Notes under the pieces: model-generated
The model's database searches: none
Told to the model about the DNA's origin: nothing
The model's input: the letters and a program-made list of their open reading frames with translations, nothing else
Position numbers and translations under genes: made by a program
Part shown: piece after piece, positions 14,033-30,694 of the stretch
Numbering within the stretch: the stretch's first letter is position 1
Layout of the letters: each line of letters begins with the position of its first letter
From: an uncultured Methylophilaceae bacterium
GTDB lineage: Bacteria > Pseudomonadota > Gammaproteobacteria > Burkholderiales > Methylophilaceae
Assembly (NCBI GenBank): GCA_964484985.1
Contig: CAZAHP010000001.1
Span: 1 to 38,830, forward strand
DNA: 38,830 nt
Direction of reading: 5' to 3'

Positions 14033-14039
14033 AAATCAC

Positions 14040-14435: not shown

Positions 14436-14567
14436 AATAAAAAACTCCTAACGAAATTAAAAAAAGTAAACTGGCAAATGTCAGCCATAAGGTAATGCTT
14501 GCTTGTTGCTTGCACCCTTTTGACGAATACCATTATGATGGTAGACGTATTACTAATAGCTTACGGC

Positions 14568-14589
14568 AACATTACAATTTTGTAATGTT
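14568..14589. promoter_or_regulatory. CusR/CopR-type copper box in the divergent promoter region
   Basis: Perfect palindrome AACATTACAA-TT-TTGTAATGTT. It resembles the E. coli CusR box AAAATGACAANNTTGTCATTTT and lies between divergent cusRS and the cus efflux operon. Confidence 0.7.
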
Positions 14590-14650
14590 GGGTAATTGGC
14601 CTGCTTACGTGCAACAATTTGCATGTTGATAAATGTCTGAAGAGAAAAAG

Positions 14651-15328
14651 ATGAAAATCTTAATAGTCGAAGATGAACAGAAAACTGGCGATTACCTGAA
14701 ACAAGGCTTATCCGAAGCTGGCTTTGTAGTAGATTTAGTGCGTGACGGCCTCGATGGCGTACATCAAGCATTAACTGATGACTACGATCTTGTAGTCCTT
14801 GATGTCATGCTACCTAAACTCGATGGCTGGCAGGTACTTCAGCAAATCAGGCAAGGAGGTAAGCATATGCCCGTGCTATTCCTTACTGCCCGCGACCAGA
14901 TTGAGGACAGGGTAAAAGGACTGGAGCTTGGTGCCGACGACTACCTTGTCAAACCGTTTGCATTTTCGGAGTTACTTGCACGAGTGCGTACATTGTTGCG
15001 CCGAGGCAAAGCCAAGGAACCTGAGCTTCTGCAAGTCGCCAACTTAGAATTGGATATTCTGCGACGTAAAGTAACGCGAGCAGGAAGACGTATTGACCTT
15101 AGCGCCAAGGAATTCTCTCTGCTTGAATTACTGTTGCGACGCCAAGGGGAGGTGCTGCCCCGTTCTCTGATTGCATCACAGGTATGGGATATGAACTTCG
15201 ACAGTGACACCAATGTGATTGAAGTTGCGATGCGTCGTTTACGCGCAAAAATAGATGACGATTTCGAGCCTAAGCTCATCCAGACCATCAGGGGCATGGG
15301 ATACGTACTGGAAATCCTAGAATCATGA
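14651..15328 (+). CDS. cusR: OmpR-family copper/silver response regulator
   Basis: MKILIVEDE receiver domain, [12 protein letters not shown], winged helix ...IRGMGYVL. Start moved to ATG 14651. Confidence 0.95.
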
Positions 15329-16734
15329 TGAATCCAAAATCAATTACTTCCCGTCTAACGCTGTTTTTTTCAACAGCATCGACTCTTGTATTGCTTATAG
15401 TAGGGTTACTAGTTGGTTCTCTGGTGGAATCGCACTTCGAAGAACAAGACCTAATGGAGCTTCACGGTAAATTGGAACTTGTCCGTCATACGCTGATTAA
15501 GGTTCACACTCCATCCGATCTCACGACCGTTCCACAAAGTCTTTCTGATGCGCTGATTGGTCATCCAGATCTTTCAGTCGCAATTCTTGGGCCAGATCAT
15601 CGCATATTATTCACTTCGCCAAGTGCTGCATTTGCCACTCACCTTCTTGAACAACCAAGCAGTAAAGAATTATCTGGTGAAGCAAAGCTCGTGATGTGGG
15701 ATCAAGGAGGACGAGTATATCGCGGCATCTCTGCTAATGCAGACACAGGTATTGCTGGACAGCCATCGGCCACTGTTGCGCTTGCAATTAGCATAGAGCA
15801 TCACCAAGCATTCATGAAAGCATTCCATAATAATTTGTGGATGGCAATCACTGCAGGTATTCTACTAACCATACTACTCGGCTGGGTTGCCGCCCGCAGA
15901 GGGCTGGCCCCAGTACGTCAAATGGCGGATGTAGCAAAAGGCATTTCGGCAAATCACCTTAGCGATCGCCTATCATCAAACTCCGTCCCTCCCGAATTAG
16001 CCAACCTTGCAATTGCCTTCAATGAAATGCTGGCTCGTCTGGAGGGTTCATTCCATCGCTTATCAGACTTCTCATCTGATTTGGCTCATGAGTTAAGGAC
16101 ACCTATCAGCAACTTGATGACGCAAACACAGGTAGCTTTATCCAAAGGGCGGTCGGCAGACGAGTACCGTGAGGTGCTATATTCAAATCTAGAAGAGTAT
16201 GAGCGACTGGCACGAATGATTGCCGATATGCTTTTTCTGGCAAAGGCTGACAATGGGCTGATAATACCAACTAACGAAATAGTAGACTTAGCTAAGGAAG
16301 GGCGAGAACTGTTTGGTTTCTATGAAGCGATTGCAGATGAACAAGGCATAAGCCTGATTCTCACAGGAGAAGGCACCGTTAGAGGTGACAGGCTAATGCT
16401 TCGTAGGGCTTTAAGCAATTTACTCTCAAATGCTATCAGACACACTTCACACGGCGGATCAATTAAGGTGTTCATCGACCAATCCAAGCCAGAAGAAACA
16501 AATCTTGCCATCGAAAATCCTGGGGAGACTATAGCGACGGAGCATCTATCCAGATTATTCGATCGTTTTTATAGAGTTGACCCTTCCCGCCAGAAAGCCA
16601 GCGATGGCGCGGGGCTTGGGCTTGCTATTACGAAATCGATTATTGAGGCACACCAAGGAAATATTCAGGTGTTTTCTTCAAATGGATTGACCCGTTTTGA
16701 AGTTAAATTTCCAAATGACAAATTAACCTCATAA
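15325..16734 (+). CDS. cusS: heavy-metal sensor histidine kinase (CusS/CopS/SilS family)
   Basis: Two TM segments flanking a periplasmic domain, HAMP, H-box [15 protein letters not shown] boxes LSNAIRHT and [13 protein letters not shown] overlap with cusR. Confidence 0.95.
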
Positions 16735-16860: not shown

Positions 16861-17559
16861 TTACTCATTAGTGGCAAGATAGTGTGTTCGCATTTTTCGC
16901 GCCTTTCTCTGGTTAGCTTTTGCTTCGTTCATTCTATTAAGTAACACCTTTATTTTTGACTGTAAATCCTCCATTTCAGTTAACAAGTCATCCTCATAAT
17001 TGGCTTTTTTCAGCGATATTATTTCGGCTTCTAAATCTCTAATTTTTGTAGTCGCCTTCTGATGCTCCAACAAATAACACCTATTCGCGTTTTGCACTTC
17101 ACGTATCATCGTTAAATCATTTGGCTCAAAGGTCAAGTCACCTCGGTGAGGGCACGTCAGTCTGCCGTTTGTTCCAATAAACCATCCTGCCCAGTCCTTA
17201 TTTGAAAGTCTAAAATGTACGCTCTCTTCGACTAGTCTTAGTAGTTCGAATGCCATAAATGGTACTGGTCTCTTGTCTAACTCCCATAGTTTAATTTCAC
17301 GTTCAGTTACACGTAGATATGCAGCACACTGCTTAACAGACATATCTAACATAAACTGTCTCATGTAAGTGAATTGCTTTGCGCCTGGTGTAATTTTTTG
17401 TGATTGTTGCACCCATAAAGGGTGATATTCTGGCCACGCTTCGTTGATTTTGCTACTTGTAGGCTCTATTGCTTGCATGTAATAGGCCCAGCGAGTCATT
17501 TCGTTTGGGTAAGGTTTGGGTTTTGATTTTATAGTAGTATTTTTTCTTATTATTGCCAT
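16861..17559 (-). CDS. putative HTH regulator (DUF3653-like phage/ICE regulatory protein) with C-terminal coiled coil
   Basis: MSVKQCAAYLRVTEREIKLWE...PVPFMAFELLRL...WAGWFI..GRL.CP pattern recalled from DUF3653-type proteins. Not searched. Confidence 0.55.
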   Translation of the reverse strand: MAIIRKNTTIKSKPKPYPNEMTRWAYYMQAIEPTSSKINEAWPEYHPLWVQQSQKITPGAKQFTYMRQFMLDMSVKQCAAYLRVTEREIKLWELDKRPVPFMAFELLRLVEESVHFRLSNKDWAGWFIGTNGRLTCPHRGDLTFEPNDLTMIREVQNANRCYLLEHQKATTKIRDLEAEIISLKKANYEDDLLTEMEDLQSKIKVLLNRMNEAKANQRKARKMRTHYLATNE

Positions 17560-17681: not shown

Positions 17682-20033
17682 TTAATGCAACAACTGTTTT
17701 GCTAATGCTACTTCTATACTATCACCTGACTGATTTAAGACATCTAAACCAGAATCAGGCATATCACCAGATGTTGATTGTGATACTGCTATTTTCTTTG
17801 CCATAAGTTCTAAACACTGCATCTGTGCGCTGTCCTCATAACCTAAGTACCACACTTCTACATCTTCTTCTTGACCGATCCGCCAACTTCTACGTGCAGC
17901 TTGCTGTACGGTGTAAACGTTATAGCCACTTTGCATAAAGACGATAGTAGGAAACTCCAACATATCAAGACCCGTTTTAACAAGCTCTTGGTTCGTGATA
18001 ATAATATCCACTCCCCTATCCACCTGGTCAAACAGCCAATCTTCACGCTTAACAGCATCAACGCTAGATCTTAATACAGCTACTTTAAAGCCTTCTTTTT
18101 CAAGAAAACCTTTAAGTCTTGCAGCTGTATCACGCTTACCCGTGTAAGTCGTATAGACTAAAACACGGCGGCCACGTAACTTATTAGATCTACAGATTTC
18201 CAATAATTCTTGCTCTTTTGGAGTAAGCGTATTGTCATCAAATATTTCCACCAAGTAAGCAATTTGCTCTTTGGTTCTAGGATGTCTGACAAGCTCATCC
18301 CTGAAACAAGTATCTGGCCATGCAAGCAATACATTTAAAACCACACCTAGTAAGCTGGTATCACCTTTACGAAGCGCCTCTCTCAGCTCTCCAGTTAAGG
18401 TTGCACTGAGTGAGTGATACATTGCACGCATCTCACTCGTCATCAGCACTTCTTTAAAGTACTCTTGATATGGCGGTAAAATATCGCCACCAATATCTTT
18501 GAGCTTTAAAAATACTGTGATTGGTAAAATATAACGCATGATCCCCATCGGACTAAAGCCTGGTCCTTTGGATGTTCTATGAGCTACAGTATTACCACGC
18601 GCAGTACGATGTGAACCACCTTCCGTTTCCTTATAAATATCTTTAAGAATACCGTGCTCACGCATGAAGCCCATTGATGCTGTACCAAGTGTGTTTCGTT
18701 CGTTATAGTCAAATCCATCTTCGATCATCATTGACGGATTCAAACGGTGCAACAAATAGAACAAATCATCAGCATAACCACCCATTAGCGTACCAGTTAG
18801 CAACAGGATCTTTTGACACTTCGCTGCTAATACACCCATGGCTTGGCCTTGAGCCGAACTTTCATTCTTGTACTCATGCCCTTCATCAACGATTAACAAG
18901 CCAAAATAGCCTTGTGGTAAGTATCGTTTGATAAATTCAGTAGGTTGGTAACCGCCCTGGCCAAACGAAAATTCTATGTTTGCCATTGCTCGCTCCATTC
19001 TACGTGCTTGCCTGTCATTGAAATACAGCTCACCATCTTCATCCATTAAGTTGATGAACTCATAAACGTTGTCGTTAAGCATTCCAGATAACATGTCAGC
19101 ACCGAACTTATCTAATAAGTTAGCAGCCGTTTTATCGCCTATGGTTGGAATTTGGCATAGGCTTTTGGCCACCAATTCTTTAGTGTTCATAGGTTGGCCA
19201 TTTTTACTGACCAATGTCCATAAACGCTCTCCACAGTCACGTTCTGCCACACGTGAAACACCATCCTCACTTGCAACTTTACGAAACACTTTATGCTGAC
19301 AAGAGGCGCGTTTCTCATTGAGAATTGCTCCAGCCATCAATGCTGAGACTGGGTTCCCATCATCATCGAGTAATAAACCGCCACAACTAGGGCAAGCGGC
19401 ATACCGAACTCGTTGCTTATGTTCACCTTCACCTACTAGCATTTTTCTAATAGAAAATGCAGGTTTCCAATTGAAACCCATACGCATGCGTACACGCCCC
19501 ATGATAAAAAACTCAGGCACTTGTGGCTTGCATTGCATAGCACGCAACTCTAAAAGCTTGCGTAAGGTATCAGGTCCGTTCAGTATCCAAACACGCGCAT
19601 TATGTACGGTAGCTTTGATTTCTCTACGCCACTTATAGACTAAATGCGGTGGTGAAATAACAAGTGACCTTGTGTAACCCTCTTCGTGTAATACCGCTGC
19701 AGCCGCGATAGCCATCATCGTTTTACCTGTGCCCATTTCGGCATTGATAATCGCTGCAGGTTGCTTATGATCTATCAACAACTTTGAGACAGCCTGGACA
19801 ACTTCTTGCTGTGGCTCAAATGGTTTTCTAAGCAATCCCTCCATCAATTCTTTACGAACTAAATCAGGGTTTCCATCATAAATTGATGGATTTTGCTTTT
19901 GAACCGCTTCTAATAAACCATGCCCAAACTCGGCAATAAACTGGCTCAGTGGTATTACTTCTTCAGCTGCACCTTCTCCATCTAAACGTTCTGCTAAAGC
20001 AGTGTCGTCATCTTCAAAATATTGCGTTGCCAT
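17682..20033 (-). CDS. SNF2/DEAD-like superfamily-2 helicase with a Zn-ribbon-containing insertion
   Basis: Walker A AEMGTGKT, DEGH box (LLIVDEGHEYKN), motif VI QQAARRSWRIGQ. About 280 aa lie between motifs I and II, including CPSCGG...C. Confidence 0.9.
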   Translation of the reverse strand: MATQYFEDDDTALAERLDGEGAAEEVIPLSQFIAEFGHGLLEAVQKQNPSIYDGNPDLVRKELMEGLLRKPFEPQQEVVQAVSKLLIDHKQPAAIINAEMGTGKTMMAIAAAAVLHEEGYTRSLVISPPHLVYKWRREIKATVHNARVWILNGPDTLRKLLELRAMQCKPQVPEFFIMGRVRMRMGFNWKPAFSIRKMLVGEGEHKQRVRYAACPSCGGLLLDDDGNPVSALMAGAILNEKRASCQHKVFRKVASEDGVSRVAERDCGERLWTLVSKNGQPMNTKELVAKSLCQIPTIGDKTAANLLDKFGADMLSGMLNDNVYEFINLMDEDGELYFNDRQARRMERAMANIEFSFGQGGYQPTEFIKRYLPQGYFGLLIVDEGHEYKNESSAQGQAMGVLAAKCQKILLLTGTLMGGYADDLFYLLHRLNPSMMIEDGFDYNERNTLGTASMGFMREHGILKDIYKETEGGSHRTARGNTVAHRTSKGPGFSPMGIMRYILPITVFLKLKDIGGDILPPYQEYFKEVLMTSEMRAMYHSLSATLTGELREALRKGDTSLLGVVLNVLLAWPDTCFRDELVRHPRTKEQIAYLVEIFDDNTLTPKEQELLEICRSNKLRGRRVLVYTTYTGKRDTAARLKGFLEKEGFKVAVLRSSVDAVKREDWLFDQVDRGVDIIITNQELVKTGLDMLEFPTIVFMQSGYNVYTVQQAARRSWRIGQEEDVEVWYLGYEDSAQMQCLELMAKKIAVSQSTSGDMPDSGLDVLNQSGDSIEVALAKQLLH

Positions 20034-20038
20034 CGTGC

Positions 20039-20100
20039 TCTCCTAAAATAAAAAAAGGGAGCACGACCCCGAATGGGCAGTAACTCCCCATCGGGTTAAA
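20039..20100 (-). promoter_or_regulatory. short leader module A (UAACCC box, terminator-like hairpin, U7, SD)
   Basis: Minus strand: UUUAACCCGAUGGGGAGUUACUGCCCAUUCGGGGUCGUGCUCCCUUUUUUUAUUUUAGGAGAGCACGAUG. Confidence 0.8.
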
Positions 20101-20113
20101 ACAAATTTAAATA

Positions 20114-20659
20114 CTAAATCTTAATTAAAAGATTGGTCTCAATATACTCATACAACTGAAAATCAGGCATGCTCTGCTTTGCATTTTCGTACTCAACAAC
20201 TAATGCATTCAACAGTTGGCCAACTTTAGTTATATTCAGTGATATTTCTTTATGGTTTAGGGTATCGCTACCATCCCCAGTTGAGAAATAATCAGCTTCA
20301 TTTGAACAATGCTCGATAACGTTATTGAATGCCTGGAGCAATGGATCTGAGCTTTCAGGTACGTCATCATCTTCAATGTTGTATTGCAAACCTTCCTCAG
20401 CAGGTATCTCAGTGACAAAATACCCTAGACGATTTACATAATGCCAGCCATTAACAATTAACCATGAACTTTCCTCACTATCAATAAGCGTCCAAATAGT
20501 GAGTGGATTGATTTTATTTTGCTCTAGGATGAATTCATATTCTTGACCATAAGTCTCAAACATGTGGCCATCATAAGAAGCATTATTATCAAGGTGGTTC
20601 TTGACTGGTTTAAATTGTTCCCAGAACTGATCATCTGTTAACTTAACTAATTGATTCAT
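20114..20659 (-). CDS. acidic hypothetical protein
   Basis: 181 aa, own SD behind module B, D/E-rich; no family recognised. Confidence 0.7.
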   Translation of the reverse strand: MNQLVKLTDDQFWEQFKPVKNHLDNNASYDGHMFETYGQEYEFILEQNKINPLTIWTLIDSEESSWLIVNGWHYVNRLGYFVTEIPAEEGLQYNIEDDDVPESSDPLLQAFNNVIEHCSNEADYFSTGDGSDTLNHKEISLNITKVGQLLNALVVEYENAKQSMPDFQLYEYIETNLLIKI

Positions 20660-20665
20660 GGTGTA

Positions 20666-20720
20666 CTCCTAATAAAATAGGGTGCACCATGCCCAAAGGG
20701 TGGTTACACCCTTGGGTTAG
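20666..20720 (-). promoter_or_regulatory. short leader module B
   Basis: CUAACCCAAGGGUGUAACCACCCUUUGGGCAUGGUGCACCCUAUUUUAUUAGGAGUACACCAUG. Confidence 0.75.
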
Positions 20721-20734
20721 TATTAAATTTATAT

Positions 20735-21325
20735 TTAGCTAATTAAACGTGCTGTGCCTTCGTTGATTGATCCAATTAAATAGCCGCGCTGAAACACATA
20801 ATTGTCATTGAATATGATCCGCTTACCTTCTTTTCTGGATACTCTAAATTGATTGCTTGAGTATCCATTTTTGAAAGTGACTGGTTGCTCAAATTCAATA
20901 AGACTGCCAACGGTTAACGAGGCTATGAATTTGCTAGCGTTCTTTTTACTTTGGAGCCTTTGATGACAACGTTCGCGCCACTCATTGGCATACTCATGAA
21001 CAGTAGGCGTTAGCTTATTTAAAATGCGTAGTGGGCAATTGTAAGCACATGGACCACAACTTTCATCCATATCCTTATAGCAAATGTTGTTGCGGCTATC
21101 TTTGTGTAAAGTCACCAAAGTAATTGACGCAAATACCCTACGCTCACCCGTTTGTTTGTTGATGCATTCAACAGCTGCATAGAATTCACTGAAATTAACG
21201 AAAGCACTATCTAATACTTTATACGTATTAGGACTTTCATCACTCCAAGTAAATACGCCGCTACTTAAAAGAAAATCCGACACCGATTGTTCTTTCTGCT
21301 TATAGGTACAAGTCCATCCCATCAT
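20735..21325 (-). CDS. hypothetical Cys-containing protein
   Basis: True start MMGWTCTYKQ at 21325 behind AAGGAG. The 36 N-terminal residues in the ORF track are read-through of repeat C. Confidence 0.7.
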   Translation of the reverse strand: MMGWTCTYKQKEQSVSDFLLSSGVFTWSDESPNTYKVLDSAFVNFSEFYAAVECINKQTGERRVFASITLVTLHKDSRNNICYKDMDESCGPCAYNCPLRILNKLTPTVHEYANEWRERCHQRLQSKKNASKFIASLTVGSLIEFEQPVTFKNGYSSNQFRVSRKEGKRIIFNDNYVFQRGYLIGSINEGTARLIS

Positions 21326-21328
21326 GCT

Positions 21329-21567
21329 CTCCTTAAAATGAAAAAAGGGAGCACGACCCCGAATGGGCAGTGAACTCCCCATTGGGTTAAAACAAACTTC
21401 ATGTAATCCTGGTCTTGCGACCGTTGTTTTCAAGGACTGAACAACTTTAAAAGCAACACTTACGGTGTTAATCGAGCTTTAACTGAAAGCTAACAGTGAG
21501 ACACTCATAAGTACCAGGTACTTTTCTCAAATACACGCTTGGCCATGTGTTTGAGAAAAGCCCCTGA
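21329..21567 (-). ncRNA. long structured leader element C (short module plus hairpins P4-P1 plus overlapping hairpins T3/T2/T1)
   Basis: 21320-21505 is identical over 186 bp to 24961-25146. Hairpins GGUC-GCAA-GACC, GUUGUU/AACAAC, AACAC/GUGUU, AGCUUU/AAAGCU. Confidence 0.75.
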
Positions 21568-21586
21568 AGGCTTTTCTTATTCTACA

Positions 21587-22243
21587 TCAACTACATTTTG
21601 TTACCACTACATCTTGAATACTACCGATTTCGTCATCCAACTTCCAACTGGATGCAATAAAATCATCTGACTTAACCATTAGCAAAGCATGCTCTCGTGC
21701 GCTTTCTTCACTGCCTGCTTTAATAAGCAGCTCACATGACTCTGAAGCTAAGCGCATTACCAGCACTTTGTAGTTGCCTACGTCATTTGGTATTGCAAAG
21801 CCATTATTTCCATAAGTAGCTTTTGTTGGCCACTCATAGACTAACTCGTAATTAAGTATGACAAAATCATCTGCATTAGCAGGTAACGTTAATGCCTGCA
21901 GCTCACCTTCGCCTGCACTTGCATAATAATAAATGCTGTCATCATTAACGCCATAACCATCATGTTGATTGTGTTCGGTAAACGTTCCAAATGAAATGTA
22001 CACATCACTTACAGTGCCCTCATCCAACAATTGAATCCGACACTCTGCACCTATAGGTTCTTGGCTTTGTGTATAGAGTGTATCTTTACCCACAAAATCA
22101 TCCATCTCCCATTTTCCTTGAAATAGTGGGTCATCAAAGACTTCTCGTGCTAACTTTAAGGACTCTTCCATATTAATAGCATCTATGCTGATAGTGCATG
22201 ACTCAGTTAAAGCATGTGTAGCTGTTACTAAAAACTTACTCAT
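21587..22243 (-). CDS. acidic hypothetical protein with N- and C-terminal copies of an ESC..I.A...EES...A motif region
   Basis: 218 aa. Compare LTESCTISIDAINMEESLKLAREVFDDPLFQGKWEMDDFVG with ASESCELLIKAGSEESAREHALLMVKSDDFIASSWKLDDEIG. Confidence 0.7.
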   Translation of the reverse strand: MSKFLVTATHALTESCTISIDAINMEESLKLAREVFDDPLFQGKWEMDDFVGKDTLYTQSQEPIGAECRIQLLDEGTVSDVYISFGTFTEHNQHDGYGVNDDSIYYYASAGEGELQALTLPANADDFVILNYELVYEWPTKATYGNNGFAIPNDVGNYKVLVMRLASESCELLIKAGSEESAREHALLMVKSDDFIASSWKLDDEIGSIQDVVVTKCS

Positions 22244-22249
22244 TTTATT

Positions 22250-22307
22250 CTCCTGAAAATATCAAGAGAAACCCCGCCTCGCGGTGGGGTTCCGCTTGAC
22301 GGGTTAA
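22250..22307 (-). promoter_or_regulatory. short leader module D (variant with GCGA-tetraloop hairpin)
   Basis: UUUUAACCCGUCAAGCGGAACCCCACCGCGAGGCGGGGUUUCUCUUGAUAUUUUCAGGAGAAUAAAAUG. Confidence 0.7.
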
Positions 22308-22320
22308 AATATATATACGT

Positions 22321-23418
22321 CTATCGAATACTTACAATCTGGCCGTAACCTTCGCCTGGCGTGAAATCTATTCCAGTAATGGCTGGTATAAATTTGTCAG
22401 TAAAAGTTCTGGTTTCTGAAACTACTCCATTGTCACTTGTTTCGTGTGTCACAACCAGATCACGTTGCTTAAAGGTATCCCCTTTAATTAACAGCCTTCT
22501 ACCTGATTCAGACTCTACTACACCTGAGATCTGGCCAGCTGCAAGCGCTAAGGCTAAATGCCAGTTGGACAAAGCACGTAATGGTTGCCTAGGCTTGTCT
22601 TCAGCTACCGTAAACATCGTGTTAAATTGTGACCAAAGCGTATTTTTGCTTAACCTATTCAGTTCAGACTCTAATTGTCGGCCATCAATACGAATGGCTG
22701 TGAATTTAAGGTCTGCCTCCCGTATTTCTGGGACTAAATAGGGTTCTGCTTGCCAAAATTCTGGCAACACTGGGGCTTCACCAGTACCGCATAGCTCAAG
22801 AAGTTTTTGTGTTTCCACATCAACCATTTCAGCACGACGCTTCACACCAAAGATCACACACTGCTTAAATTGCTTTTCAGGTGACATAAACACTTTCACT
22901 TGCGAAAAATTGCGAGCGATCATGCTGGAATACTCTTTATCCAGTACATAGTACGGAACAATGAGCACCATCACGCCACCAAACTGCAACCAAGGCATTG
23001 TCTTACGGTAAAACTGCTTTTCAAGTCGATCACCCACTGTTTTACTGCCACAAGTGGCAGCTTTGTCAGAAACAACATCGCCGTATGGTGGGTTTAGGAA
23101 CAATAAACTTTGGCTACGCGCAGTAATAAAAACATCGTTAATATCACAGTGTGCAACCTTATCAAGCAGTGTCTTGGAATGCCAGGCACGCTCTTCATCG
23201 TACTCAACTCCCAATGCACTTACAGTAGATCCGCATTCAGTAAGATGATGCTTTATCTCAGCCAAAGCGGTTCCCTCTCCACAACAAGGATCCAGTATGC
23301 TTAGATTTGAACCACTAATATCCAAAGCATTGATTATTCTGGCCAACGTCATTTCATCCGTTGGGTAATACCCGTTTTTCAAAAAATTATGCGCTAAGCG
23401 CGAAAACATTAAAGCCAT
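22321..23418 (-). CDS. orphan N6-adenine DNA methyltransferase (motif I then NPPY; possibly DUF6094-type)
   Basis: ILDPCCGEGTAL (SAM motif I) and FLNPPYG (motif IV). No adjacent endonuclease-like ORF. Confidence 0.85.
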   Translation of the reverse strand: MALMFSRLAHNFLKNGYYPTDEMTLARIINALDISGSNLSILDPCCGEGTALAEIKHHLTECGSTVSALGVEYDEERAWHSKTLLDKVAHCDINDVFITARSQSLLFLNPPYGDVVSDKAATCGSKTVGDRLEKQFYRKTMPWLQFGGVMVLIVPYYVLDKEYSSMIARNFSQVKVFMSPEKQFKQCVIFGVKRRAEMVDVETQKLLELCGTGEAPVLPEFWQAEPYLVPEIREADLKFTAIRIDGRQLESELNRLSKNTLWSQFNTMFTVAEDKPRQPLRALSNWHLALALAAGQISGVVESESGRRLLIKGDTFKQRDLVVTHETSDNGVVSETRTFTDKFIPAITGIDFTPGEGYGQIVSIR

Positions 23419-23424
23419 GATGTA

Positions 23425-23480
23425 CTCCTAAAAAATAGAGACACCATGCCCTTGTGGGGATGATGTCCCCACAGGGTTAA
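23425..23480 (-). promoter_or_regulatory. short leader module E
   Basis: UUAACCCUGUGGGGACAUCAUCCCCACAAGGGCAUGGUGUCUCUAUUUUUUAGGAGUACAUCAUG. The stem needs two G-U pairs on the minus strand. Confidence 0.75.
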
Positions 23481-23482
23481 AA

Positions 23483-23719
23483 TTAATACTGACCTAAATT
23501 ACATATCACGCCTTTAGAATAAGAATATGGTCCTATGCTGAGAGGCTGTATATGATGGCCACTACCTTTGAGTGATACACACAGCCGTCTAAATTGCTCG
23601 ACAGTGCATGGCTCAATCACAAATGCGGTTTTATCAAAATCTGTTTGCTCGACTGTTACATCAGAGCCACAAACTTTAACGGCCGCATGATTGACTTTCA
23701 TTAGATCTAGGTTAGTCAT
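23483..23719 (-). CDS. small hypothetical protein
   Basis: 78 aa; 8-nt overlap with the upstream gene (translational coupling). Confidence 0.6.
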   Translation of the reverse strand: MTNLDLMKVNHAAVKVCGSDVTVEQTDFDKTAFVIEPCTVEQFRRLCVSLKGSGHHIQPLSIGPYSYSKGVICNLGQY

Positions 23720-24194
23720 GTGTTACCTGGTGATGAGGATGATTTATAAGTTTCAACTGCTCAAATTCATCAAACTGCATGAACCAACTATCCAAACTAC
23801 AACCTGAGTACACATCTTGAGCTGCAATCGATAAACCGTCTGGAAAGATCCGTAGGTGTATTTCATTCACTCTGACTATCGGCATATCTGCTAAAAGCGT
23901 TTGACTGCGATTTTCGCCTATGCAATTTTGAGCAAACATCAGCTCTATATCACTTGGTATCTCATTGAAGTAATGGCAGTCTATTTGCTTACCATGGTGA
24001 CGAAGTGAGTTAACACCTGCCAAAATGGATATATCAAACAAACCGAGCTTGTCATGCAGCGCACTTGCTTCTTTTACAAATGGTAATAGATCCTGCAAAT
24101 CGAAGCTCAACACTAAATAGCGTGGAAGCGCGTCATTATTGGTGACTTTTGCATCGTAAAAAGTCTTGGTGACGATTTTGTAAATGCTAGTCAT
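23712..24194 (-). CDS. hypothetical protein
   Basis: 160 aa; 8-nt overlap with the upstream gene. Confidence 0.65.
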   Translation of the reverse strand: MTSIYKIVTKTFYDAKVTNNDALPRYLVLSFDLQDLLPFVKEASALHDKLGLFDISILAGVNSLRHHGKQIDCHYFNEIPSDIELMFAQNCIGENRSQTLLADMPIVRVNEIHLRIFPDGLSIAAQDVYSGCSLDSWFMQFDEFEQLKLINHPHHQVTHD

Positions 24195-24966
24195 GATTGA
24201 CCACCAACTTCAATAGTGTGGTGTTAGTTTCAACCTCACTATCATTAGCTGCTACGGGGTAATCATCTTCGTAGAAATCATCATTACTATGACCAAACTC
24301 ATCAATGCAAATTTGACGAAAATCACCGTCTTCATCATCAACCATGCCACCATTATTACAGTATGCCACGCCTGCAAAACCACCGCCTTCATCTGCATAA
24401 GCCATCCTGAAGCTTAATTCAGGAAACGCTGCGCTCATTGCTTCAAGTACTGGATAGGCTGGCGACCAGGCTGTTTCATAGTAACAACGGAAAACGGTGT
24501 CGGAACTATCATCAGCTAATGCGTGGTTGTATGCATCCCACTTAGTCCCCCAGTTCACTATGCTCCATTCATACCAAGTTTCGTACCCATATTTTGCAAT
24601 ATTGGTAACCACTTTATGACCTAACTCAACTGCTTCAGGTTTATGTTTTGCGAACCAAGCCAAAAACTTCGGCCGAGAATGATGTAGGGCATTGATATTA
24701 GTCTGTGAAAGCTGCTCTTCTTGCATCAGCTTAATAACCCAAGGGTAATTCAGCACCGTTTTAAAATCACCTGCGACCACTTCTTTACCTAAGCTTGATT
24801 CTGATCCGCATGTAATTTGGAGTTCTTCAGGCATTGGAATGACACGGTTAAATACTAAACAATGTTCTACTTCACCAATTTTTTCACAAAACTTGGCTTT
24901 GAACGCTGCAATGTCGGCTGCATTACCGTTTACTTCTAAATTAGTCCAAACGTGGTTAGGCATCAT
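24187..24966 (-). CDS. DUF1281-like (Api92-like ferredoxin-fold) protein with acidic C-terminus
   Basis: MMPNHVWTNLEV..., WYEWSIVNWGTKWDAYN, ETAWSPAYPV. True start at 24966; the ORF-track N-terminus is repeat read-through. Confidence 0.7.
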   Translation of the reverse strand: MMPNHVWTNLEVNGNAADIAAFKAKFCEKIGEVEHCLVFNRVIPMPEELQITCGSESSLGKEVVAGDFKTVLNYPWVIKLMQEEQLSQTNINALHHSRPKFLAWFAKHKPEAVELGHKVVTNIAKYGYETWYEWSIVNWGTKWDAYNHALADDSSDTVFRCYYETAWSPAYPVLEAMSAAFPELSFRMAYADEGGGFAGVAYCNNGGMVDDEDGDFRQICIDEFGHSNDDFYEDDYPVAANDSEVETNTTLLKLVVNHD

Positions 24967-24969
24967 GCT

Positions 24970-25218
24970 CTCCTTAAAATGAAAAAAGGGAGCACGACCC
25001 CGAATGGGCAGTGAACTCCCCATTGGGTTAAAACAAACTTCATGTAATCCTGGTCTTGCGACCGTTGTTTTCAAGGACTGAACAACTTTAAAAGCAACAC
25101 TTACGGTGTTAATCGAGCTTTAACTGAAAGCTAACAGTGAGACACTACTAAGTACCAGGTACTTTTCTTAAACACACGCATGACCATGTGCTTGAGAAAA
25201 GCCCCTGAAGGCTCTTCT
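24970..25218 (-). ncRNA. long structured leader element F
   Basis: 186-bp identity with element C, then diverged T3/T2/T1 hairpins with a G-U compensated T1. Confidence 0.75.
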
Positions 25219-25225
25219 TACTACT

Positions 25226-25543
25226 TTACTTGGTTAATGATAATGCCATTAAATATTTATGGCATTCCTGGCATCCACAAGGCTTAACATAGCCTGACTT
25301 AAATATTTCTAAGCATTGGCTTATATTGTCCTCATGAATACTGTGTGTTTCTGACTGCGTATTGATATATCCATATTTCAAATGCACCCAGTAACCATCA
25401 CCATCCTTACCTTGACTACGATAATCTTCAATTTCATTGATGTACATTGCATAGGGTTTTAGGCTTGTTGGTATTGTTACGTTCTTAGTCACTTTCAGCT
25501 CAACACGTAAGTTATAAGCTAGCATATCTACCGAATCACTCAT
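25226..25543 (-). CDS. small hypothetical protein
   Basis: 105 aa, ATGA overlap with the upstream gene, CGCQEC near the C-terminus. Confidence 0.6.
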   Translation of the reverse strand: MSDSVDMLAYNLRVELKVTKNVTIPTSLKPYAMYINEIEDYRSQGKDGDGYWVHLKYGYINTQSETHSIHEDNISQCLEIFKSGYVKPCGCQECHKYLMALSLTK

Positions 25544-26718
25544 GCTGCAGCCCTTCCGTATCTTTGCTCAATAAGTTGCTTAATTTCGCTCAGTGGTTTT
25601 GGCTCAAAATACAGATCCAATTCAACATGTAATGGCACTTGTACGGCGGTCTTACTGCTACCCTCATATAAATCACCTTTGACATGAATCTGTGTACCCA
25701 CTAACTCACTAATTGAAATATAGCCCAGCTCAGCACACATTAAATCGCCATTGAGTATTGCGTAGCCAAATGCTTGCGACACGCCATCCTCAATATCTTT
25801 TTCAATAATGTACCAATCTGAATCACCTAAAAAGTAATGCAAACTCACCACTGGATCGTTTTCATCTTCACAGTCGTAAGTTTTAGGCATGCTGCCAATT
25901 CTATAAGCCATTTCTTTGAATTTTTCCTCAAAGAAACTACCCTCTTCACCTTTGCAACATTCCAGCATCGATAAATACTGTTGAGTAGATAAATAAGGCC
26001 TTAACGTAGCTTTTGCCTGCTTGCTGATGTACTGTGAATCTGATGTTGGTTGTTTACTCACGATACTATTGTGATTAACCAGACTTGCATCAAACTGTTG
26101 GCCATCAATACCGATCAATCCTGACTTCACCATGCTAGATATGATCTGGGTAAACTCTGCATCGATCACCAACTTGGCCGCGCTAATTTTACCTATTGGT
26201 GGGTAGTTGATCGTGTTCATCCAAGTGACGCAAATTTCATTATTGGAATGCATGATTGCAGACTGCCAATCATCCAACAATGGAACTGGGGAAAGATTCT
26301 TGTAAAGCCCCCATACGCCTCTTAAAAGCTGTTCACGTACACCTACATCACCCCAAGGTTGATTAAGCACCACCCAGCCTGCTTTTGTGGCTTTGCTAGG
26401 ACTAATCAGTACAGGATCGTAAATCCAAAGATGCGTTAGATTGCCAAATAGATTATCTTTAGGAAACCGACCACTATAGACCTCAAAACGATCTGGATTA
26501 CCAACTTGTACACTATGCGGCGTTTCTTTTTTATCGTTACAATTGCGTAATGAAAAATTAGAAATGCCGCCACTATTGGGTTTTAATTGCATGGAAGCTT
26601 TGAACTGCTGAATTGCAGTATCTCGGCCATAAACGGATAGAAACATTAACTCACCTGATTCATTCCGCAGACAAGCATCCACAAATAAATCAGCCAATTC
26701 AACGACTTTATAAAGCAT
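25540..26718 (-). CDS. protein with C-terminal DUF2958-like domain and unknown N-terminal 250 aa
   Basis: LHYFLGDSDWYIIEKD...AFGYAILNGDLMCAELGYISISEL matches the remembered DUF2958 pattern. Start at ATG 26718. Confidence 0.75.
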   Translation of the reverse strand: MLYKVVELADLFVDACLRNESGELMFLSVYGRDTAIQQFKASMQLKPNSGGISNFSLRNCNDKKETPHSVQVGNPDRFEVYSGRFPKDNLFGNLTHLWIYDPVLISPSKATKAGWVVLNQPWGDVGVREQLLRGVWGLYKNLSPVPLLDDWQSAIMHSNNEICVTWMNTINYPPIGKISAAKLVIDAEFTQIISSMVKSGLIGIDGQQFDASLVNHNSIVSKQPTSDSQYISKQAKATLRPYLSTQQYLSMLECCKGEEGSFFEEKFKEMAYRIGSMPKTYDCEDENDPVVSLHYFLGDSDWYIIEKDIEDGVSQAFGYAILNGDLMCAELGYISISELVGTQIHVKGDLYEGSSKTAVQVPLHVELDLYFEPKPLSEIKQLIEQRYGRAAA

Positions 26719-26725
26719 GGTATCG

Positions 26726-26780
26726 CTCCTAATAAAAAGGGATACCTGCCCTGATGGGGATGGTATCCCCAATGGGTTAA
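26726..26780 (-). promoter_or_regulatory. short leader module G
   Basis: UUAACCCAUUGGGGAUACCAUCCCCAUCAGGGCAGGUAUCCCUUUUUAUUAGGAGCGAUACCAUG. Confidence 0.75.
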
Positions 26781-26793
26781 AGTAATCTATTGA

Positions 26794-27204
26794 TTAACTA
26801 CGAAGCTTTTCAGCAATTTCAACTGCCACACCCCGCCAACCTTCTGGTGAGATGAGTCCATTTCGCATTGATTCCAATTCTTCAATTGGAGTATTGGCAA
26901 CCAAGTTTGCAAATTTGCTTACTGCATCCATAACGAACATTTGAGCCAATGCACCAAATTTGGAATACTCCATAATTCCTGTGATTTTCTCAATGTTTGT
27001 TGGGTTATTAGACGATGAGTAGCTGCTATGGCTACTTTCATTCATCAAAGCTTCGGTTAAACTACCATTTTCCGATTCGGCATCAGTTGCTGCCTGCGCA
27101 TCACTTGTTGTACAGCCAAAACTTTCTAATTGCTGTACGCGAAGTTGATATAGCTGCTGTTCATCCAACGCACCCAGTTTGATTTTAATTGATGTAATTC
27201 TCAT
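26794..27204 (-). CDS. acidic helical hypothetical protein
   Basis: 136 aa, SD GGAGAGC behind element H. Confidence 0.65.
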   Translation of the reverse strand: MRITSIKIKLGALDEQQLYQLRVQQLESFGCTTSDAQAATDAESENGSLTEALMNESSHSSYSSSNNPTNIEKITGIMEYSKFGALAQMFVMDAVSKFANLVANTPIEELESMRNGLISPEGWRGVAVEIAEKLRS

Positions 27205-27210
27205 AGCGCT

Positions 27211-27447
27211 CTCCTAAATATAAAAAGGGAGCACGACCCCGAATGGGCAGTGAACTCCCCATTGGGTTAATACAAACTTCATGTAATCCTGGTCTTGCGA
27301 CCGTTGTTTTCAAGGACTGAACAACTTTAAAAGCAACACTTACGGTGTTAATCGAGCTGTAACTGACAGCTAACAGTGAAACTGATTTTCTAAAAAATGC
27401 GTTGGCCACACTTTTTAGAAAACCCACTCATAGAGTGAGAGTTTTCT
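27211..27447 (-). ncRNA. long structured leader element H
   Basis: Same as C except for a compensatory P1 change (AGCUGU/ACAGCU) and different T2/T1 hairpins of the same layout. Confidence 0.75.
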
Positions 27448-27452
27448 TGATT

Positions 27453-27743
27453 CTATTTCAACATACCACTGCCATGACAAGCATCACATACTTCATCATC
27501 AGGCATCACTTCATCTGGGTAATAGTGGCCAGGAACATAAACGTTCATAAATCCACAACCTGAGCATTTATTACACACTGATTGATGACTGTACAACTCA
27601 ACACTGATGGTTCTATTGGGATGTTCGGTTTTTTTACTTTTTTGCGTCATACACTTTGCATGTGATTGCGGTGTAGCTGTTAAATAGGATTTAATACCTG
27701 ACTTAACGTTAACCGCAACTAGGTGATAGAGAGATTCAATCAT
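27453..27743 (-). CDS. small protein with DnaJ-type CxxCxGxG zinc-finger motifs
   Basis: CNKCSGCGF and CDACHGSG; 8-nt overlap with the upstream gene. Confidence 0.65.
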   Translation of the reverse strand: MIESLYHLVAVNVKSGIKSYLTATPQSHAKCMTQKSKKTEHPNRTISVELYSHQSVCNKCSGCGFMNVYVPGHYYPDEVMPDDEVCDACHGSGMLK

Positions 27744-28341: not shown

Positions 28342-28347
28342 ATTGCT

Positions 28348-28644: not shown

Positions 28645-28834
28645 TTACGTCAGTGCCTAATGTTGTCATCGCCTGACAATAAACATCCCAAAGCCCTTGC
28701 CTAAGTTCTGGGTCTGCATTTAACTTATCTACTAATCGTTTTGCACCCTCTTTAGTAGATGCCAAATCTAGCAAATATGAATGTTGTTTTTTCTGCCATT
28801 GCACATCAGAAATAAAAGTTTTTGGTGTAACCAT
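28637..28834 (-). CDS. small hypothetical protein
   Basis: 65 aa, canonical GGAGAGCAUCAUG start context behind element J. Confidence 0.55.
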   Translation of the reverse strand: MVTPKTFISDVQWQKKQHSYLLDLASTKEGAKRLVDKLNADPELRQGLWDVYCQAMTTLGTDVIR

Positions 28835-28840
28835 GATGCT

Positions 28841-29065
28841 CTCCTAAATATATAAAAAGGGAGCACCACCCCGAATGGGCAGTGAACTCCCCATTGGGTT
28901 AATACAAACTTCATGTAATCCTAGGTATTGCTACCCGTTGTTTTCAAGGACTGAACAACTTTAAAGCAACACTTACGGTGTTAATCGAGCTGTAACTGAC
29001 AGCTAACAGTGAAAACGTTTAATGGCTTTCTAAAAAACACATCTATTTGTGTACTTTAGAAAGCC
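28841..29065 (-). ncRNA. long structured leader element J
   Basis: P4 is GGUA-GCAA-UACC (compensatory relative to C/F/H). T2 is GGCUUUCUAAA/UUUAGAAAGCC. Confidence 0.75.
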
Positions 29066-29397
29066 CCCAGGGCAACCCTAGAGACTGAAAGCCTGCACCA
29101 TCCAATCGTATTAGATCGTGACGCGTAATAGGCAACAAACGCGGATTTAGCGGCATGGCCGCAAACGGCGTGGAAGTCTAGGTCTCCACAACCCATAGAT
29201 TCAACTTAAGCATAACAGGAGTTGAAACCAGTGATATTGATCCGTGTGATCACAGAAAAATATCACTGGTTTCCGAATAGGGAAGACAAACTTTCGGTCT
29301 GTCTCGGGATTGAGTACAAGGTTCACGAGGCCCGTACAATTGCACCATTGAATAACGAGACGAAATTCATTCCAGTATGAATGGCAGAACTGGACAT
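29066..29397 (-). other. orphan GC-richer structured non-coding segment
   Basis: No credible ORF. 14-bp perfect stem 29224-29237/29260-29273. GUACGGG/CCUUGUAC helix (29314-29337) with G-U pairs only on the minus strand. Confidence 0.4.
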
Positions 29398-29535
29398 AAA
29401 GCAACACTTACGGTGTCAAACGCGCTAACTTAGCGAACGAGAAAATTATTCGGTGAATTTTGTTAGTTTGGGAACTTCACTTATGAGTTATCCCATAAGT
29501 GAAATCCCCAAGGGAGATTTCAAAAACCAGCTTTG
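29398..29535 (-). repeat. partial (distal-half) copy of the long element plus terminator-like hairpins after the DUF3577-like gene
   Basis: aaagcaacacttacggtgt (29398-29416) is identical to the P2 region of C/F/H/J. Followed by hairpins ttcacttat/ataagtgaa and atcccc/gggagat. Confidence 0.55.
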
Positions 29536-29537
29536 GC

Positions 29538-30407
29538 TTATTCAGCTTGGGCTAATTGAGTTTCATTTTCTTCAACTTGATTCGTGTTTTGCTCATTATC
29601 ATCGGCTTCAGAAGAAGCTAATGTTTCAGTAAGCAATGGGGTACGAACGCCATCTAAGAAAACTGCACTTATTGCGGTAAGAGCACCAATAAACTTAGCA
29701 CCTTTATCGCCAGCTTTATTAACACCAACATCTTTGGTATAAGTAAAATCAAATTTTTTGAGATTACTTACTTCAAAACGGGCAATAACTGCTGTTTCTT
29801 TACTGCTGATTTTTTGCAAGTGTTGCATGTTGCTAACTAAAGTTGTATCAATATCGCAGCTAATACGAGTGGTCTCAGCTTTAATACCTAAGTCTTTGTT
29901 ATATTCACCATGTAGCGCAGCTATAGAACAAGACATTGCGTTGGTTCTGAATGATCTAATATCATTAATATAACCAAAACCGAAAGTACCAAGTTTACGA
30001 GTATCATTAACAGGTAACTCTTCAAACGCACTGCCATTTACTGAGACATTAACTAAGTCCAATAAACGACCTTTAGCCATAAAACCTTTATCACCTTTTT
30101 GATGTTCACCAACGTCTTTATCATAAGTGAAATCGCTAATAGATAAATCACTTGCAATCCATTTAGCTTTAATTACAGCATTTTTATCAAAATGTGGCTT
30201 GATAAGCTCCAAAGCTTTAACAGCTTTAGTACTTACAGCAATCACATCAACTGATAAATCGCCAGAACGTAAAGTACAAGCATAAAAAGGTTTCCCTTTT
30301 GCTGGCTTAACCAAACGGATACGGTTAACGTAACCTTCGCTAATGTTTGTTAAATCAAAAAAGCGAGATTCGTTAGTTGTGTTAGTTGAAGTTGTAGTGT
30401 TAGTCAT
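29538..30407 (-). CDS. tandem-duplicated DUF3577-like protein (possible ssDNA-binding-type fold)
   Basis: FFDLTNISEGYVNRIRLVKPAKGKPFYAC resembles remembered DUF3577 N-termini. The internal repeat is marked by DFTYDKDVGEHQKGDKG and DFTYTKDVGVNKAGDKG. Acidic tail. Confidence 0.75.
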   Translation of the reverse strand: MTNTTTSTNTTNESRFFDLTNISEGYVNRIRLVKPAKGKPFYACTLRSGDLSVDVIAVSTKAVKALELIKPHFDKNAVIKAKWIASDLSISDFTYDKDVGEHQKGDKGFMAKGRLLDLVNVSVNGSAFEELPVNDTRKLGTFGFGYINDIRSFRTNAMSCSIAALHGEYNKDLGIKAETTRISCDIDTTLVSNMQHLQKISSKETAVIARFEVSNLKKFDFTYTKDVGVNKAGDKGAKFIGALTAISAVFLDGVRTPLLTETLASSEADDNEQNTNQVEENETQLAQAE

Positions 30408-30413
30408 GATGCT

Positions 30414-30596
30414 CTCCTAAATATAAAAAAAGGGGAGCATTACCCGATTGGGAAATGAACTCCCCAATGGGTTAAAACTAAACATAAAATGAAATCCTAG
30501 AGTTTGCACTCCGTCGTTTACAAGGACTGAACGACATTAAGGCGGTCATTTGCGTTAACCAAACGAACTGAAACTGACAGTCAACAGTGAAACTAA
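30414..30596 (-). ncRNA. long structured leader element K (most diverged copy)
   Basis: P4 GAGU-GCAA-ACUC, P3 GUCGUU/AACGAC, inner stem CAUU/AAUG; all compensatory relative to C. Confidence 0.7.
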
Positions 30597-30629: not shown

Positions 30630-30694
30630 AGACTAATTAATGCAATACGCATTTTCCGCAAATAATTTTAGTTGTCAATAGTTAAACATTGTTT

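Follow-up and report, generated by a model that had tools for sequence, protein, structure and literature searches.

In the riboswitches SAM-II, SAM-V, preQ1-II and fluoride a pseudoknot hides the ribosome-binding site, the Shine-Dalgarno (SD) sequence being in its 3′ strand. Other structured RNAs, nut of lambda with its boxA and boxB, put of HK022 and EAR, are for processive antitermination, and boxB has a GNRA-like loop. For single-stranded DNA (ssDNA), Masai and Arai are said to have described, in 1997, the Frpo/ssi promoters of plasmid leading regions. Frpo elements consist of one large imperfect stem-loop on the transferred (template) strand which rebuilds a -35 and a -10 box (PMC11541004, PMC12672017), and in a study of pESBL, segments below -75 kcal/mol were kept for analysis and large stem-loops were found (PMC12672017). 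There is also STAXI (RF01728), a conserved pseudoknotted non-coding motif to which no function was assigned (Weinberg et al. 2010, PMC2864571). What, then, is to be made of intergenic elements that share features with each of these? Those considered here lie in a 38,830-nt stretch of DNA from an uncultured Methylophilaceae bacterium (contig CAZAHP010000001.1, positions 1 to 38,830, of assembly GCA_964484985.1), which is termed the window, in a region that is part of an integrative conjugative element (ICE) of the ICEHin1056/SPI-7 type.

Five long copies, C, F, H, J and K, each have a domain of about 105-110 nt with four hairpins, P1 to P4, and a pseudoknot, and downstream of it a short module at the start of a gene. 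On comparative grounds the P1-P4/pseudoknot domain qualifies as a real and well-supported structured RNA motif, uncatalogued in Rfam. What the long elements do is less certain, and it is proposed tentatively that they may be new cis-acting structured 5′ leader RNAs which gate translation of successive sub-operons of the ICE.

A repeated four-hairpin domain

An earlier reading, made by a model from the letters alone (the sequence-only reading), had placed the five copies on the minus strand and written out their hairpins, and in this it was right. A repeat finder recovers them at 21320-21579, 24961-25220 (97% identical) and 27200-27459, with shorter families reaching 28831-29016 and 30404-30594. 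Neighbouring copies are 1.6-3.6 kb apart, all five are within 10 kb, and a 22-nt core, GTTCAGTCCTTGNAAACNACGG, occurs 5 times where shuffles give an expectation of 0.00. The arms are as had been quoted: for P4, GGUC-GCAA-GACC in C, F and H, GGUA-GCAA-UACC in J and GAGU-GCAA-ACUC in K; for P3, GUUGUU/AACAAC, with GUCGUU/AACGAC in K; for P1, AGCUUU/AAAGCU in C and F and AGCUGU/ACAGCU in H and J; and for P2, AACAC-CGUAA-GUGUU in C, F, H and J, the P2 of K being different (GGUUA-ACGCAAA-UGACC). Coordinates are in Table 1.

Related copies came from metagenomic ICE contigs, which are given handles beginning with L. Diverged copies were reached through DUF3577 homologues (64-68% identity) on short contigs, 16 further loci came from one metagenome scan anchored on single-stranded conserved segments only, and contigs reached via DUF1281 homologues yielded four far more diverged copies, one in L041 and three in L035. 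As the L041 and L035 copies were found by the covariance model (CM) alone they are free of pattern bias, and in them all the helices are kept with new sequences. The final set has 24 distinct copies, aligned with the CM, and is the basis of the counts below where no other is named. Copies inside one element are more alike than orthologous copies elsewhere, i.e., there is concerted evolution, and the independent lineages are perhaps about 8, not 24.

In that set 96.7% of the pair cells hold standard pairs, as against 26-47% with partners slid, and 19 of the 27 pairs have double-sided compensatory changes, which are found in every helix (Table 1). The covariation score, 0.513, compares with at most 0.108 for slid controls and 0.180 for shuffles, none of 500 shuffles reaching it. 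A plain MAFFT alignment of 18 copies gives 95.1% standard pairs against 32-45% slid, and RNAalifold, unaided, returns the same four hairpins. The apparent compensations had been open to the objection that they might not be significant in a wider alignment; they held. The view that a selected fold, and not a plain repeat, is involved is thereby strengthened, with strong covariation in P1, P2, P3, P4 and in T2, a hairpin further upstream. The P2 loop is CGUAA in 17 copies, ACGCAAA in five and CGUUA in two. The GNRA loop of P4, which had been called invariant, is near-invariant: 23 of the 24 are GNRA (GCAA 14, GUAA 8, GAAA 1) but one is CCCG. A pairing of the 5′ flank ACUG with CAGU of the P1 loop was considered and dropped, being broken in copies whose loop is CAGCU or CAGGU. 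A selfish repeat resembling miniature inverted-repeat transposable elements or repetitive extragenic palindromes was also rejected, as there are no terminal inverted repeats, orientation and register to start codons are fixed, and positions are orthologous in diverged elements.

How widespread is the domain? P1-P4 is found in one clade of metagenomic elements only, and contigs near-identical to the window come from metagenome assemblies only. A pattern scan of 185,579 representative genomes gave just two chance matches, scans of viral contigs gave none or one chance match, and no match came from megablast against phages and plasmids or from blastn at word size 11 with plasmids and E. coli genomes as targets. 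With Rfam 15 there was no relevant match, at the gathering score or at a loose E-value, in the window and five related loci. The P1-P4 covariance model found nothing significant on the Vibrio plasmid pVS127 (best E 0.15), and it was not run on ICEHin1056. Searches of the accessible literature, including that on DUF3577 and ICEHin1056, turned up no earlier description of the motif.

Table 1. Features of the window; covariation counts are pairs with compensatory changes in the CM alignment of 24 copies
Feature	Position	Strand	Remarks
P-type ATPase, CusABC/Czc-like efflux system and CusRS-like two-component system	2213-16734		~51% G+C
Short modules standing alone	20028-20109, 20654-20730, 22238-22317, 23413-23490, 26713-26790, 28336-28415	-	
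Long element C, complete	21320..21581	-	T1, T2, small hairpin, P1-P4 with pseudoknot, short module, start codon of DUF6927 gene
C, short module	21320..21389	-	H1 CCCAAUGGG/CCCAUUCGGG; H2, anti-SD UCGUGCUCC paired with SD GGAG and start-codon flank; minimum free energy (MFE) fold, covariation
C, AGGAUUACAUG	21400..21410	-	AGGAU, predicted pseudoknot 3′ strand, then conserved AUG opening short leader open reading frame (ORF) of variable length
C, P4	21411..21422	-	GGUC-GCAA-GACC, GNRA hairpin stacked straight on P3; covariation in 4/5 pairs
C, P3	21423..21445	-	GUUGUU-CAGUCCUUGAA-AACAAC; loop GUCCU (21433-21437), predicted pseudoknot 5′ strand; covariation in 5/6 pairs, cells 100% paired in the 24 copies
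C, P2	21455..21469	-	AACAC-CGUAA-GUGUU; covariation in 5/5 pairs
C, P1	21475..21491	-	AGCUUU-CAGUU-AAAGCU; covariation in 4/6 pairs
C, T2	21521..21560	-	Conserved long hairpin, 5′ arm takes in U-tract of T1; RNAalifold
C, T1	21554..21577	-	Terminator-like hairpin AGAAAAGCC-UUCAGG-GGCUUUUCU, directly 3′ of stop codon of upstream gene; read from sequence
Long element F	24958..25222	-	97% identical to C, coordinates those of C + 3641; CM core 25032-25146; before DUF1281_C/Api92-like gene
Long element H	27199..27445	-	T1 27423-27439, T2 27386-27424, CM core 27271-27385, then short module; before 136-aa gene
Long element J	28829..29081	-	T1 ~29067-29081, T2 ~29024-29065, CM core 28903-29018, short module 28829-28912; before 65-aa gene
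Degenerate or divergent partial copy	29350..29449	-	P1-, P2- and P3-like hairpins, no P4; in 703-nt non-coding stretch; CM 32.5 bits, E = 2e-6
Long element K	30402..30596	-	Without T1 and T2; CM core 30479-30596, short module 30402-30485; before DUF3577 (STY4534-family) gene
Sigma-70 promoter-like TTGACA-16-GAAAAT	30651..30678	-	~55 nt upstream of P1 of K; best site in 12-kb scan, 10/12 matches

The pseudoknot and the supposed promoter

The P3 loop has GUCCU, which is complementary to the AGGAU after P4, and all five pairs can be drawn in 24 of 24 copies, one of them an invariant G·U. In all three copies of L035, UCCU/AGGA has become UCCA/UGGA, a compensatory switch on both sides. By complementarity and this switch, GUCCU and AGGAU are predicted to form a pseudoknot. 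The same two segments had been seen by the sequence-only reading as an embedded promoter, TTGAAA followed 17-18 nt later by TAGGAT. The hexamers, more generally TTGNAA and YAGGAT, are the two pseudoknot strands. They are present in 21 of the 24 copies and the spacing is 16 nt in C, F and H (where the second is CAGGAT) and 18 nt in J and K (TAGGAT), a difference that arises because P4 gains or loses whole base pairs, each of 2 nt. For a sigma-70 promoter an A at position 2 and a T at position 6 of the -10 hexamer, with 16-18 nt spacing, would be looked for in all copies, and this fails in L035, whose three copies have ATGCAA and CTGGAT: the key A at -10 position 2 is lost while the segments still pair. 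On this evidence the hexamers are probably not a promoter but pseudoknot strands. TTAACA…TAAAGT, another promoter-like pair that spans P2, was likewise set aside, its spacing being 15-19 nt and its -10-like linker being lost in L035 and L041.

Is there a promoter elsewhere? Upstream of K there is the sigma-70-like site in Table 1, which is kept in K-type copies of L022, L023 and L031 despite diverged flanks, and from this predicted promoter the P1-P4 of K would fall in the 5′ untranslated region.

Hairpins upstream and the boundaries of units

T1, the terminator-like hairpin, comes directly after the stop codon of the previous gene, and the claim of a leader is borne out in so far as it follows a hairpin of this terminator-like kind. 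Its sequence is wholly different between copy types and equivalent hairpins are present in at least 14 related copies. The terminator scan calls the T1 of H only (27439-27423), those of C, F and J having 3-6 G-C pairs and short tracts, UUUUCU or UUUCU. T2 has 17 pairs, 8 with compensatory changes, and G·U pairs are many (RNAalifold, 17 copies); wherever a copy has T1, its MFE fold includes T2. It had been thought that T1 and T2 are mutually exclusive in C, F and H. That applies to C and F, where they share a strand, but the core T1 of H overlaps T2 by only about 2 nt. In J both are present and adjacent, and K-type copies and L027 have neither. The broader suggestion of a combined terminator, switch, promoter and leader unit survives in its leader part, and for the switch in C and F only, but not for the promoter.

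The long elements mark unit boundaries. In the order of transcription K heads DUF3577, which a non-coding stretch follows, J and H head three genes each, F heads five, and C heads three, ending in the SNF2 helicase and a strong terminator. As the first genes downstream are mutually unrelated (DUF6927, DUF1281, DUF3577, RadC and small proteins without assigned function), the element marks an operon head and not one pathway.

The short module and the leader start codon

The 3′ part of every long copy, after a conserved UUAACCC, is the short module, which has no Rfam match and precedes most genes of the block. It has four segments, X that mimics the SD, W that pairs with X, Y that is an anti-SD, and Z, comprising the SD and start-codon flank. 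In 16 of 16 variants, pVS127 included, the MFE fold consists of the hairpins H1 (X:W, closed by CCC/GGG) and H2 (Y:Z), and with the SD and AUG kept unpaired these give way to a hairpin of X with Y, after which comes a U-run. H2, which covaries with the bases immediately before the AUG, is predicted to sequester both SD and AUG. By the same modelling the short module alone could be a two-state RNA element, in which the SD mimic would compete for the anti-SD and give a terminator-like hairpin with a U-run.

In its distribution the module goes beyond the domain. While 23 of the 24 P1-P4 copies are 10-25 nt upstream of a short module, the same module is in Vibrio scophthalmi pVS127 (L033) and in Haemophilus ICEHin1056 (L034), where by eye it stands before four genes, two of these being rows in the H2 alignment. 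It thus appears to occur in at least two other named MOBH/MPF_G elements. These have long repeated structured leaders of their own, unrelated to those here (L033 ~4050-4300 and 5790-5980; L034 8099-8982), upstream of the DUF3577 gene and one other gene, and a layout of promoter, long structured leader and short module seems general in the family, with leader sequences differing.

An AUG follows 3 nt after AGGAU in 20 of the 24 copies, the neighbouring bases being variable, and in three K-type copies it is shifted 5 nt downstream. There are 22 leader ORFs before a short module and a 23rd, in L027, with none downstream. Among the 22, nine stop at a UAG in the SD and five at a UGA at, or not more than 2 nt from, the main AUG; stops are within 12 nt of that AUG in 14, and three have no stop of this kind and continue into the main gene or beyond it. 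The possibility that AGGAUUACAUGA is a decoy for the anti-SD of the short module was set aside and is retained as speculation only: it is energetically feasible in L035, but it has no co-variation with the SD flank, and in C and K it is bettered by other alternative folds.

The L027 copy (4753-5081, minus strand) is on a plasmid-like contig with a Rep_3-like initiator and is without T1, T2 and short module. There a promoter-like TAGACA-17-CACAAT would start RNA at P1, a further GNRA hairpin and a weak terminator follow, and the copy may be a free-standing small RNA.

Comparison with described systems

By context STAXI is the closest. It too is a conserved pseudoknotted motif for which the question of RNA or ssDNA arises, its stable RNA tetraloops arguing for RNA, and it is found near ssb, topoisomerase, anti-restriction and integrase genes of genomic islands. 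A neighbourhood of that type is present here, one operon block encoding SSB, topoisomerase III, a DUF6094 methyltransferase, the SNF2 helicase and DUF1281/Api92-like proteins. However, STAXI is a small pseudoknot unit in 2-3 tandem repeats at one site, with UUCG loops, in contrast to one four-hairpin domain per intergenic region at five operon heads, with GNRA loops and an SD-sequestering module fused to it. The STAXI covariance model found nothing in the window at the gathering score, nothing in 19900-31900 at E up to 5, and nothing in five related loci, so that there is no match by model or architecture.

With Frpo/ssi the likeness is in repeated, strongly folding non-coding elements of about 250 nt, in one orientation, before ssb, anti-restriction and methylase-type genes. 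Their structure is different. On DNA folding, the 267-nt element C gives no large stem-loop and instead 8-9 separate small hairpins, at -43.1 kcal/mol for the template strand and -48.1 for the coding strand. The only conserved hexamers, which are not in all lineages, are found in the loop of P3 and in the single-stranded segment that follows P4, and T2, the longest stem (~17-22 bp), is too short for both boxes. The wobble pairs favour the coding strand and not a template strand that would be the transferred one (oriT is outside the window). Element C has no blastn match (word size 11) among 72,556 PLSDB plasmids, a set in which the presence of F/IncI1 reference plasmids was not confirmed.

In design the closest systems would seem, by analogy, to be the SD-hiding pseudoknot riboswitches. 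There is the H-type pseudoknot with, as its 3′ strand, a purine tract that resembles an SD and comes a few nucleotides before an AUG, and there are invariant loop and junction nucleotides, covarying stems and an expression platform directly downstream; here the GUCCU:AGGAU pairing is retained in 24/24, with one compensatory switch, and the AUG is 3 nt downstream in 20/24. Unlike those riboswitches, the present domain has no Rfam match, is larger with its four hairpins, and stands before genes that have no metabolic theme and offer no hint of a ligand, and the start it would control is that of a variable leader ORF and not of the gene itself. The nut, put and EAR systems resemble it as hairpin leader RNAs after promoters of long mobile-element operons with internal terminators, and differ in that here there is no conserved boxA, no recognisable N-like or NusG-like partner, five copies where those systems have one per promoter, and a tight link to a translation-initiation module. 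A GCUCUUUA-like boxA together with a boxB and an N-type protein was not found among the copies and their neighbours, the linker being AC-UCGAAU in L035 and GC-CAAAG in L041.

Which strand, and RNA or DNA?

The gene strand has 49 G·U cells and only 8 A·C cells (an A·C cell being one that reads as G·U in the complementary strand), and T2 is rich in G·U. Because of this bias the fold belongs to the sense strand, as had been claimed when it was assigned to the minus strand. Sense RNA of element C folds at -92.1 kcal/mol (z = -5.45), antisense RNA at -76.9. The sense-strand fold is most likely mRNA, and that it acts as RNA rather than as ssDNA can be held with good confidence. The DNA-level role that the sequence-only reading had entertained is disfavoured by the sense-strand G·U bias and by there being no long stem-loop to rebuild -35 and -10 boxes.

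A proposed role and its rivals

How might such a leader work? From 5′ to 3′ the order is T1 closing the previous unit, T2, P1-P4 with the pseudoknot, the AUG 3 nt on, and the short module. By default the short module would be in the H1 and H2 form, locking the true SD and start codon, and the pseudoknot would sequester the SD-like AGGAU beside the leader AUG. If the pseudoknot were open, ribosomes could load there and translate the leader ORF, which is short and not conserved, as far as the short module or through it, and a ribosome stopping at or near the true SD and AUG would melt H2 and so permit translation of the first gene of the sub-operon. For genes with a short module only, unlocking would be by ribosomes from an ORF ending 4-20 nt upstream. 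Candidates for the trigger that opens or closes the pseudoknot are a protein, a small ligand or temperature. The leader domain would most likely control expression of ICE replication and anti-restriction genes. That P1-P4 and the pseudoknot are the sensor of a new class of RNA switch, responding to ligand or protein and licensing translation of those genes by exposing or hiding the leader-ORF start site, is conceivable but doubtful; under that reading the start site would in its turn unlock the SD-sequestering module, the one shared with the Vibrio plasmid and ICEHin1056. As a second possibility, so compact and conserved a fold might be a self-cleaving ribozyme cutting the operon RNA into units. 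Among 20 neighbouring small proteins searched with Pfam and NCBIfam there was no RNA-binding partner, and, by eye, no LexA box, IHF site or RfaH ops site fits across the copies.

Several points weigh against leaders that gate translation in this manner. The covariation of the pseudoknot is from a single lineage, L035, and with concerted evolution the independent events are fewer than the counted cells. For C, F, H and J the promoter scan found no convincing promoter between T1 and P1, and their transcription through P1-P4 would therefore rest on read-through of T1. The AGGAU is only 3 nt from the AUG, which is short, and weakens to UGGAU in L035, and in L041 the leader AUG is lost (ACAUU). The leader ORFs, of 4-27 codons where a stop is found, have no conserved frame or peptide, and in four of the 22 the stop is the UAA within UUAACCC, which leaves 64 nt to the main AUG. 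Downstream of the L027 copy a short module is missing, and for the one at 28336-28415 in the window no ORF of its own strand ends close upstream, because a plus-strand gene (28441-28644) stands there. Lastly, a sense-strand ssDNA fold is inseparable from an RNA fold by sequence analysis alone.

Other explanations have to be set beside this one. A processive antitermination RNA of nut, put or EAR type, modifying RNA polymerase alone or with an ICE-encoded protein, would be made after the operon promoter at K and after each internal terminator, and polymerase would then read through T1 and the terminator-like fold of the module; we consider this unlikely, while acknowledging that the copies head each unit downstream of the K promoter and upstream of the next T1, that the operon is full of terminator-like hairpins (16 in the operon scan against 8.0 expected), that the X:Y alternative of the short module is a hairpin with a U-run, and that a GNRA-capped hairpin beside conserved single-stranded boxes recalls boxB and boxA. 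Against it, the boxA-like linker YGC..UUUAAWG is absent in L035 and L041, no N-like, Q-like or NusG-like protein is recognised among the neighbouring genes, and neither the constant spacing to the short module nor the AUG following the SD-like pseudoknot strand is explained. RNase III sites lie between the early genes of phage T7, and a cassette for RNA processing or stability, in which T2 would be an RNase III-type cleavage site where the polycistronic RNA is cut into units and P1-P4 would protect the new 5′ end, as at those T7 sites, accords with T2 being a long conserved duplex, G·U pairs included, that immediately precedes the domain, with the position of the elements exactly at unit boundaries and with five copies within 10 kb. 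Since K-type copies and L027 keep P1-P4 without T2, and since invariant loops and a pseudoknot are needless for simple 5′ protection, it is quite unlikely.

The remaining two alternatives are at the DNA level. Very unlikely is the formation of sense-strand hairpins by ssDNA while the ICE is being transferred by conjugation or, once excised, is replicating as a rolling circle; the hairpins would be signals for priming or for a single-strand origin, a Frpo-like promoter or attC-like recombination sites. That SSB, topoisomerase III and 'ICE replication proteins' are among the products of the region, that in this it is like the leading regions of plasmids, with their many anti-restriction functions (PMC11541004), that the motif is in consecutive intergenic regions, and that RNA and ssDNA folds are not strictly separable by bioinformatics (PMC5737381) are all in its favour. 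Yet the folding energy is spread over many small hairpins with no single long stem-loop and no rebuilt -35/-10, the fold is on the coding strand, which cannot template these genes (and so, provided that the plasmid rule applies to them, a Frpo-type role is excluded), there is an abundance of G·U (G·T) pairs, with many in T2 and an invariant one in the pseudoknot, the register of the domain to the SD-sequestering hairpin, which pairs with the start codon, is fixed, and protein-family searches found no integron integrase in the window. Least credible, indeed barely so, is a double-stranded sigma-70 promoter cassette, TTGNAA in the P3 loop plus YAGGAT, that restarts transcription after T1 in the manner of the PeSL terminator-promoter cassettes between T4 early genes. 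A promoter is to be expected after a terminator, and in the 21 copies the hexamers are invariant at either of two spacings. But those spacings track the number of P4 base pairs and are never the optimal 17, L035 retains pairing and not the hexamers, conservation takes in the whole P3 loop, K retains the motif despite a strong promoter of its own, and the covariation of P1, P2 and P4 goes unexplained.

Genomic setting and other observations

From 17682 to 38692 the G+C content is about 40% and nearly all genes are on the minus strand. In the order of transcription the block includes AcaB, SSB, an HU-like protein and topoisomerase III, next a tandem DUF3577 protein (STY4534-family 'ICE replication protein'), DUF3275, DUF2958 and DUF1281_C/Api92-like proteins, and also the DUF6094 methyltransferase, DUF6927 and the SNF2 helicase. 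By tblastn the DUF3577 protein is tied to MOBH/MPF_G conjugative elements, e.g., ICEHin1056 and Vibrio plasmids. A scan of the window for tRNA and tmRNA found none. After the helicase gene a 232-aa protein (16861-17559, minus strand) has a weak match, 50 bits where the cut-off is 70, to the VC1465-family Xer recombination activation factor, which hints at a link to Xer/dif-type integration.

The sole plausible plus-strand gene within the block is that at 28441-28644, of 67 aa, with a homologue in L027 (2775-3014). A 703-nt non-coding stretch (28835-29537, minus strand) separates the DUF3577 gene from element J and is kept in L014, L022, L024, L025 and L032, which also holds a hairpin pair (29469-29548) with a weak Gut-1-like score; L014 has a 58-aa ORF within its counterpart, which the window is without. 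The stretch may be a separate non-coding RNA. Upstream of a 198-aa gene a perfect 19-bp inverted repeat, GTATGTTCATTAATGTACA / TGTACATTAATGAACATAC, and two smaller palindromes, CGTTACATGGTAACG and a related one, look like operators (31839-31890 and 31764-31931). At the end of the window (38764-38830) the 31-nt sequence TTCCAACACTTCGACCACCGAATTTACTGTT is exactly repeated 36 nt apart, in an array that may continue past it.

Gene content between the last long element and the SNF2 helicase differs between the window (20735-21325), which has DUF6927 and a 181-aa gene, and L019 (6038-6467), which has two small genes, with the flanking leader and short module conserved; to judge from this comparison the repeats may also anchor cassette exchange. 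Many metagenome contigs (L004, L014, L018, L020, L029 and L036-L041) start or end inside long elements or short modules, i.e., the repeats fragment assemblies of such ICEs.

Implications

Resistance to antibiotics and metals travels with ICEs of the ICEHin1056/SPI-7/pKLC102 type, and the window itself carries a cus/czc-like efflux cluster. The systematic fragmentation of ICEs of this kind in metagenome assemblies is at these very regulatory sites. For RNA biologists, a well-supported motif outside Rfam is a candidate for their attention. The timing of expression of ICE replication and anti-restriction genes is poorly understood, and a predicted pseudoknotted domain at every sub-operon head, with a module before most genes that would lock the ribosome-binding site, points to post-transcriptional control, in contrast to the ssDNA promoters described for plasmids.

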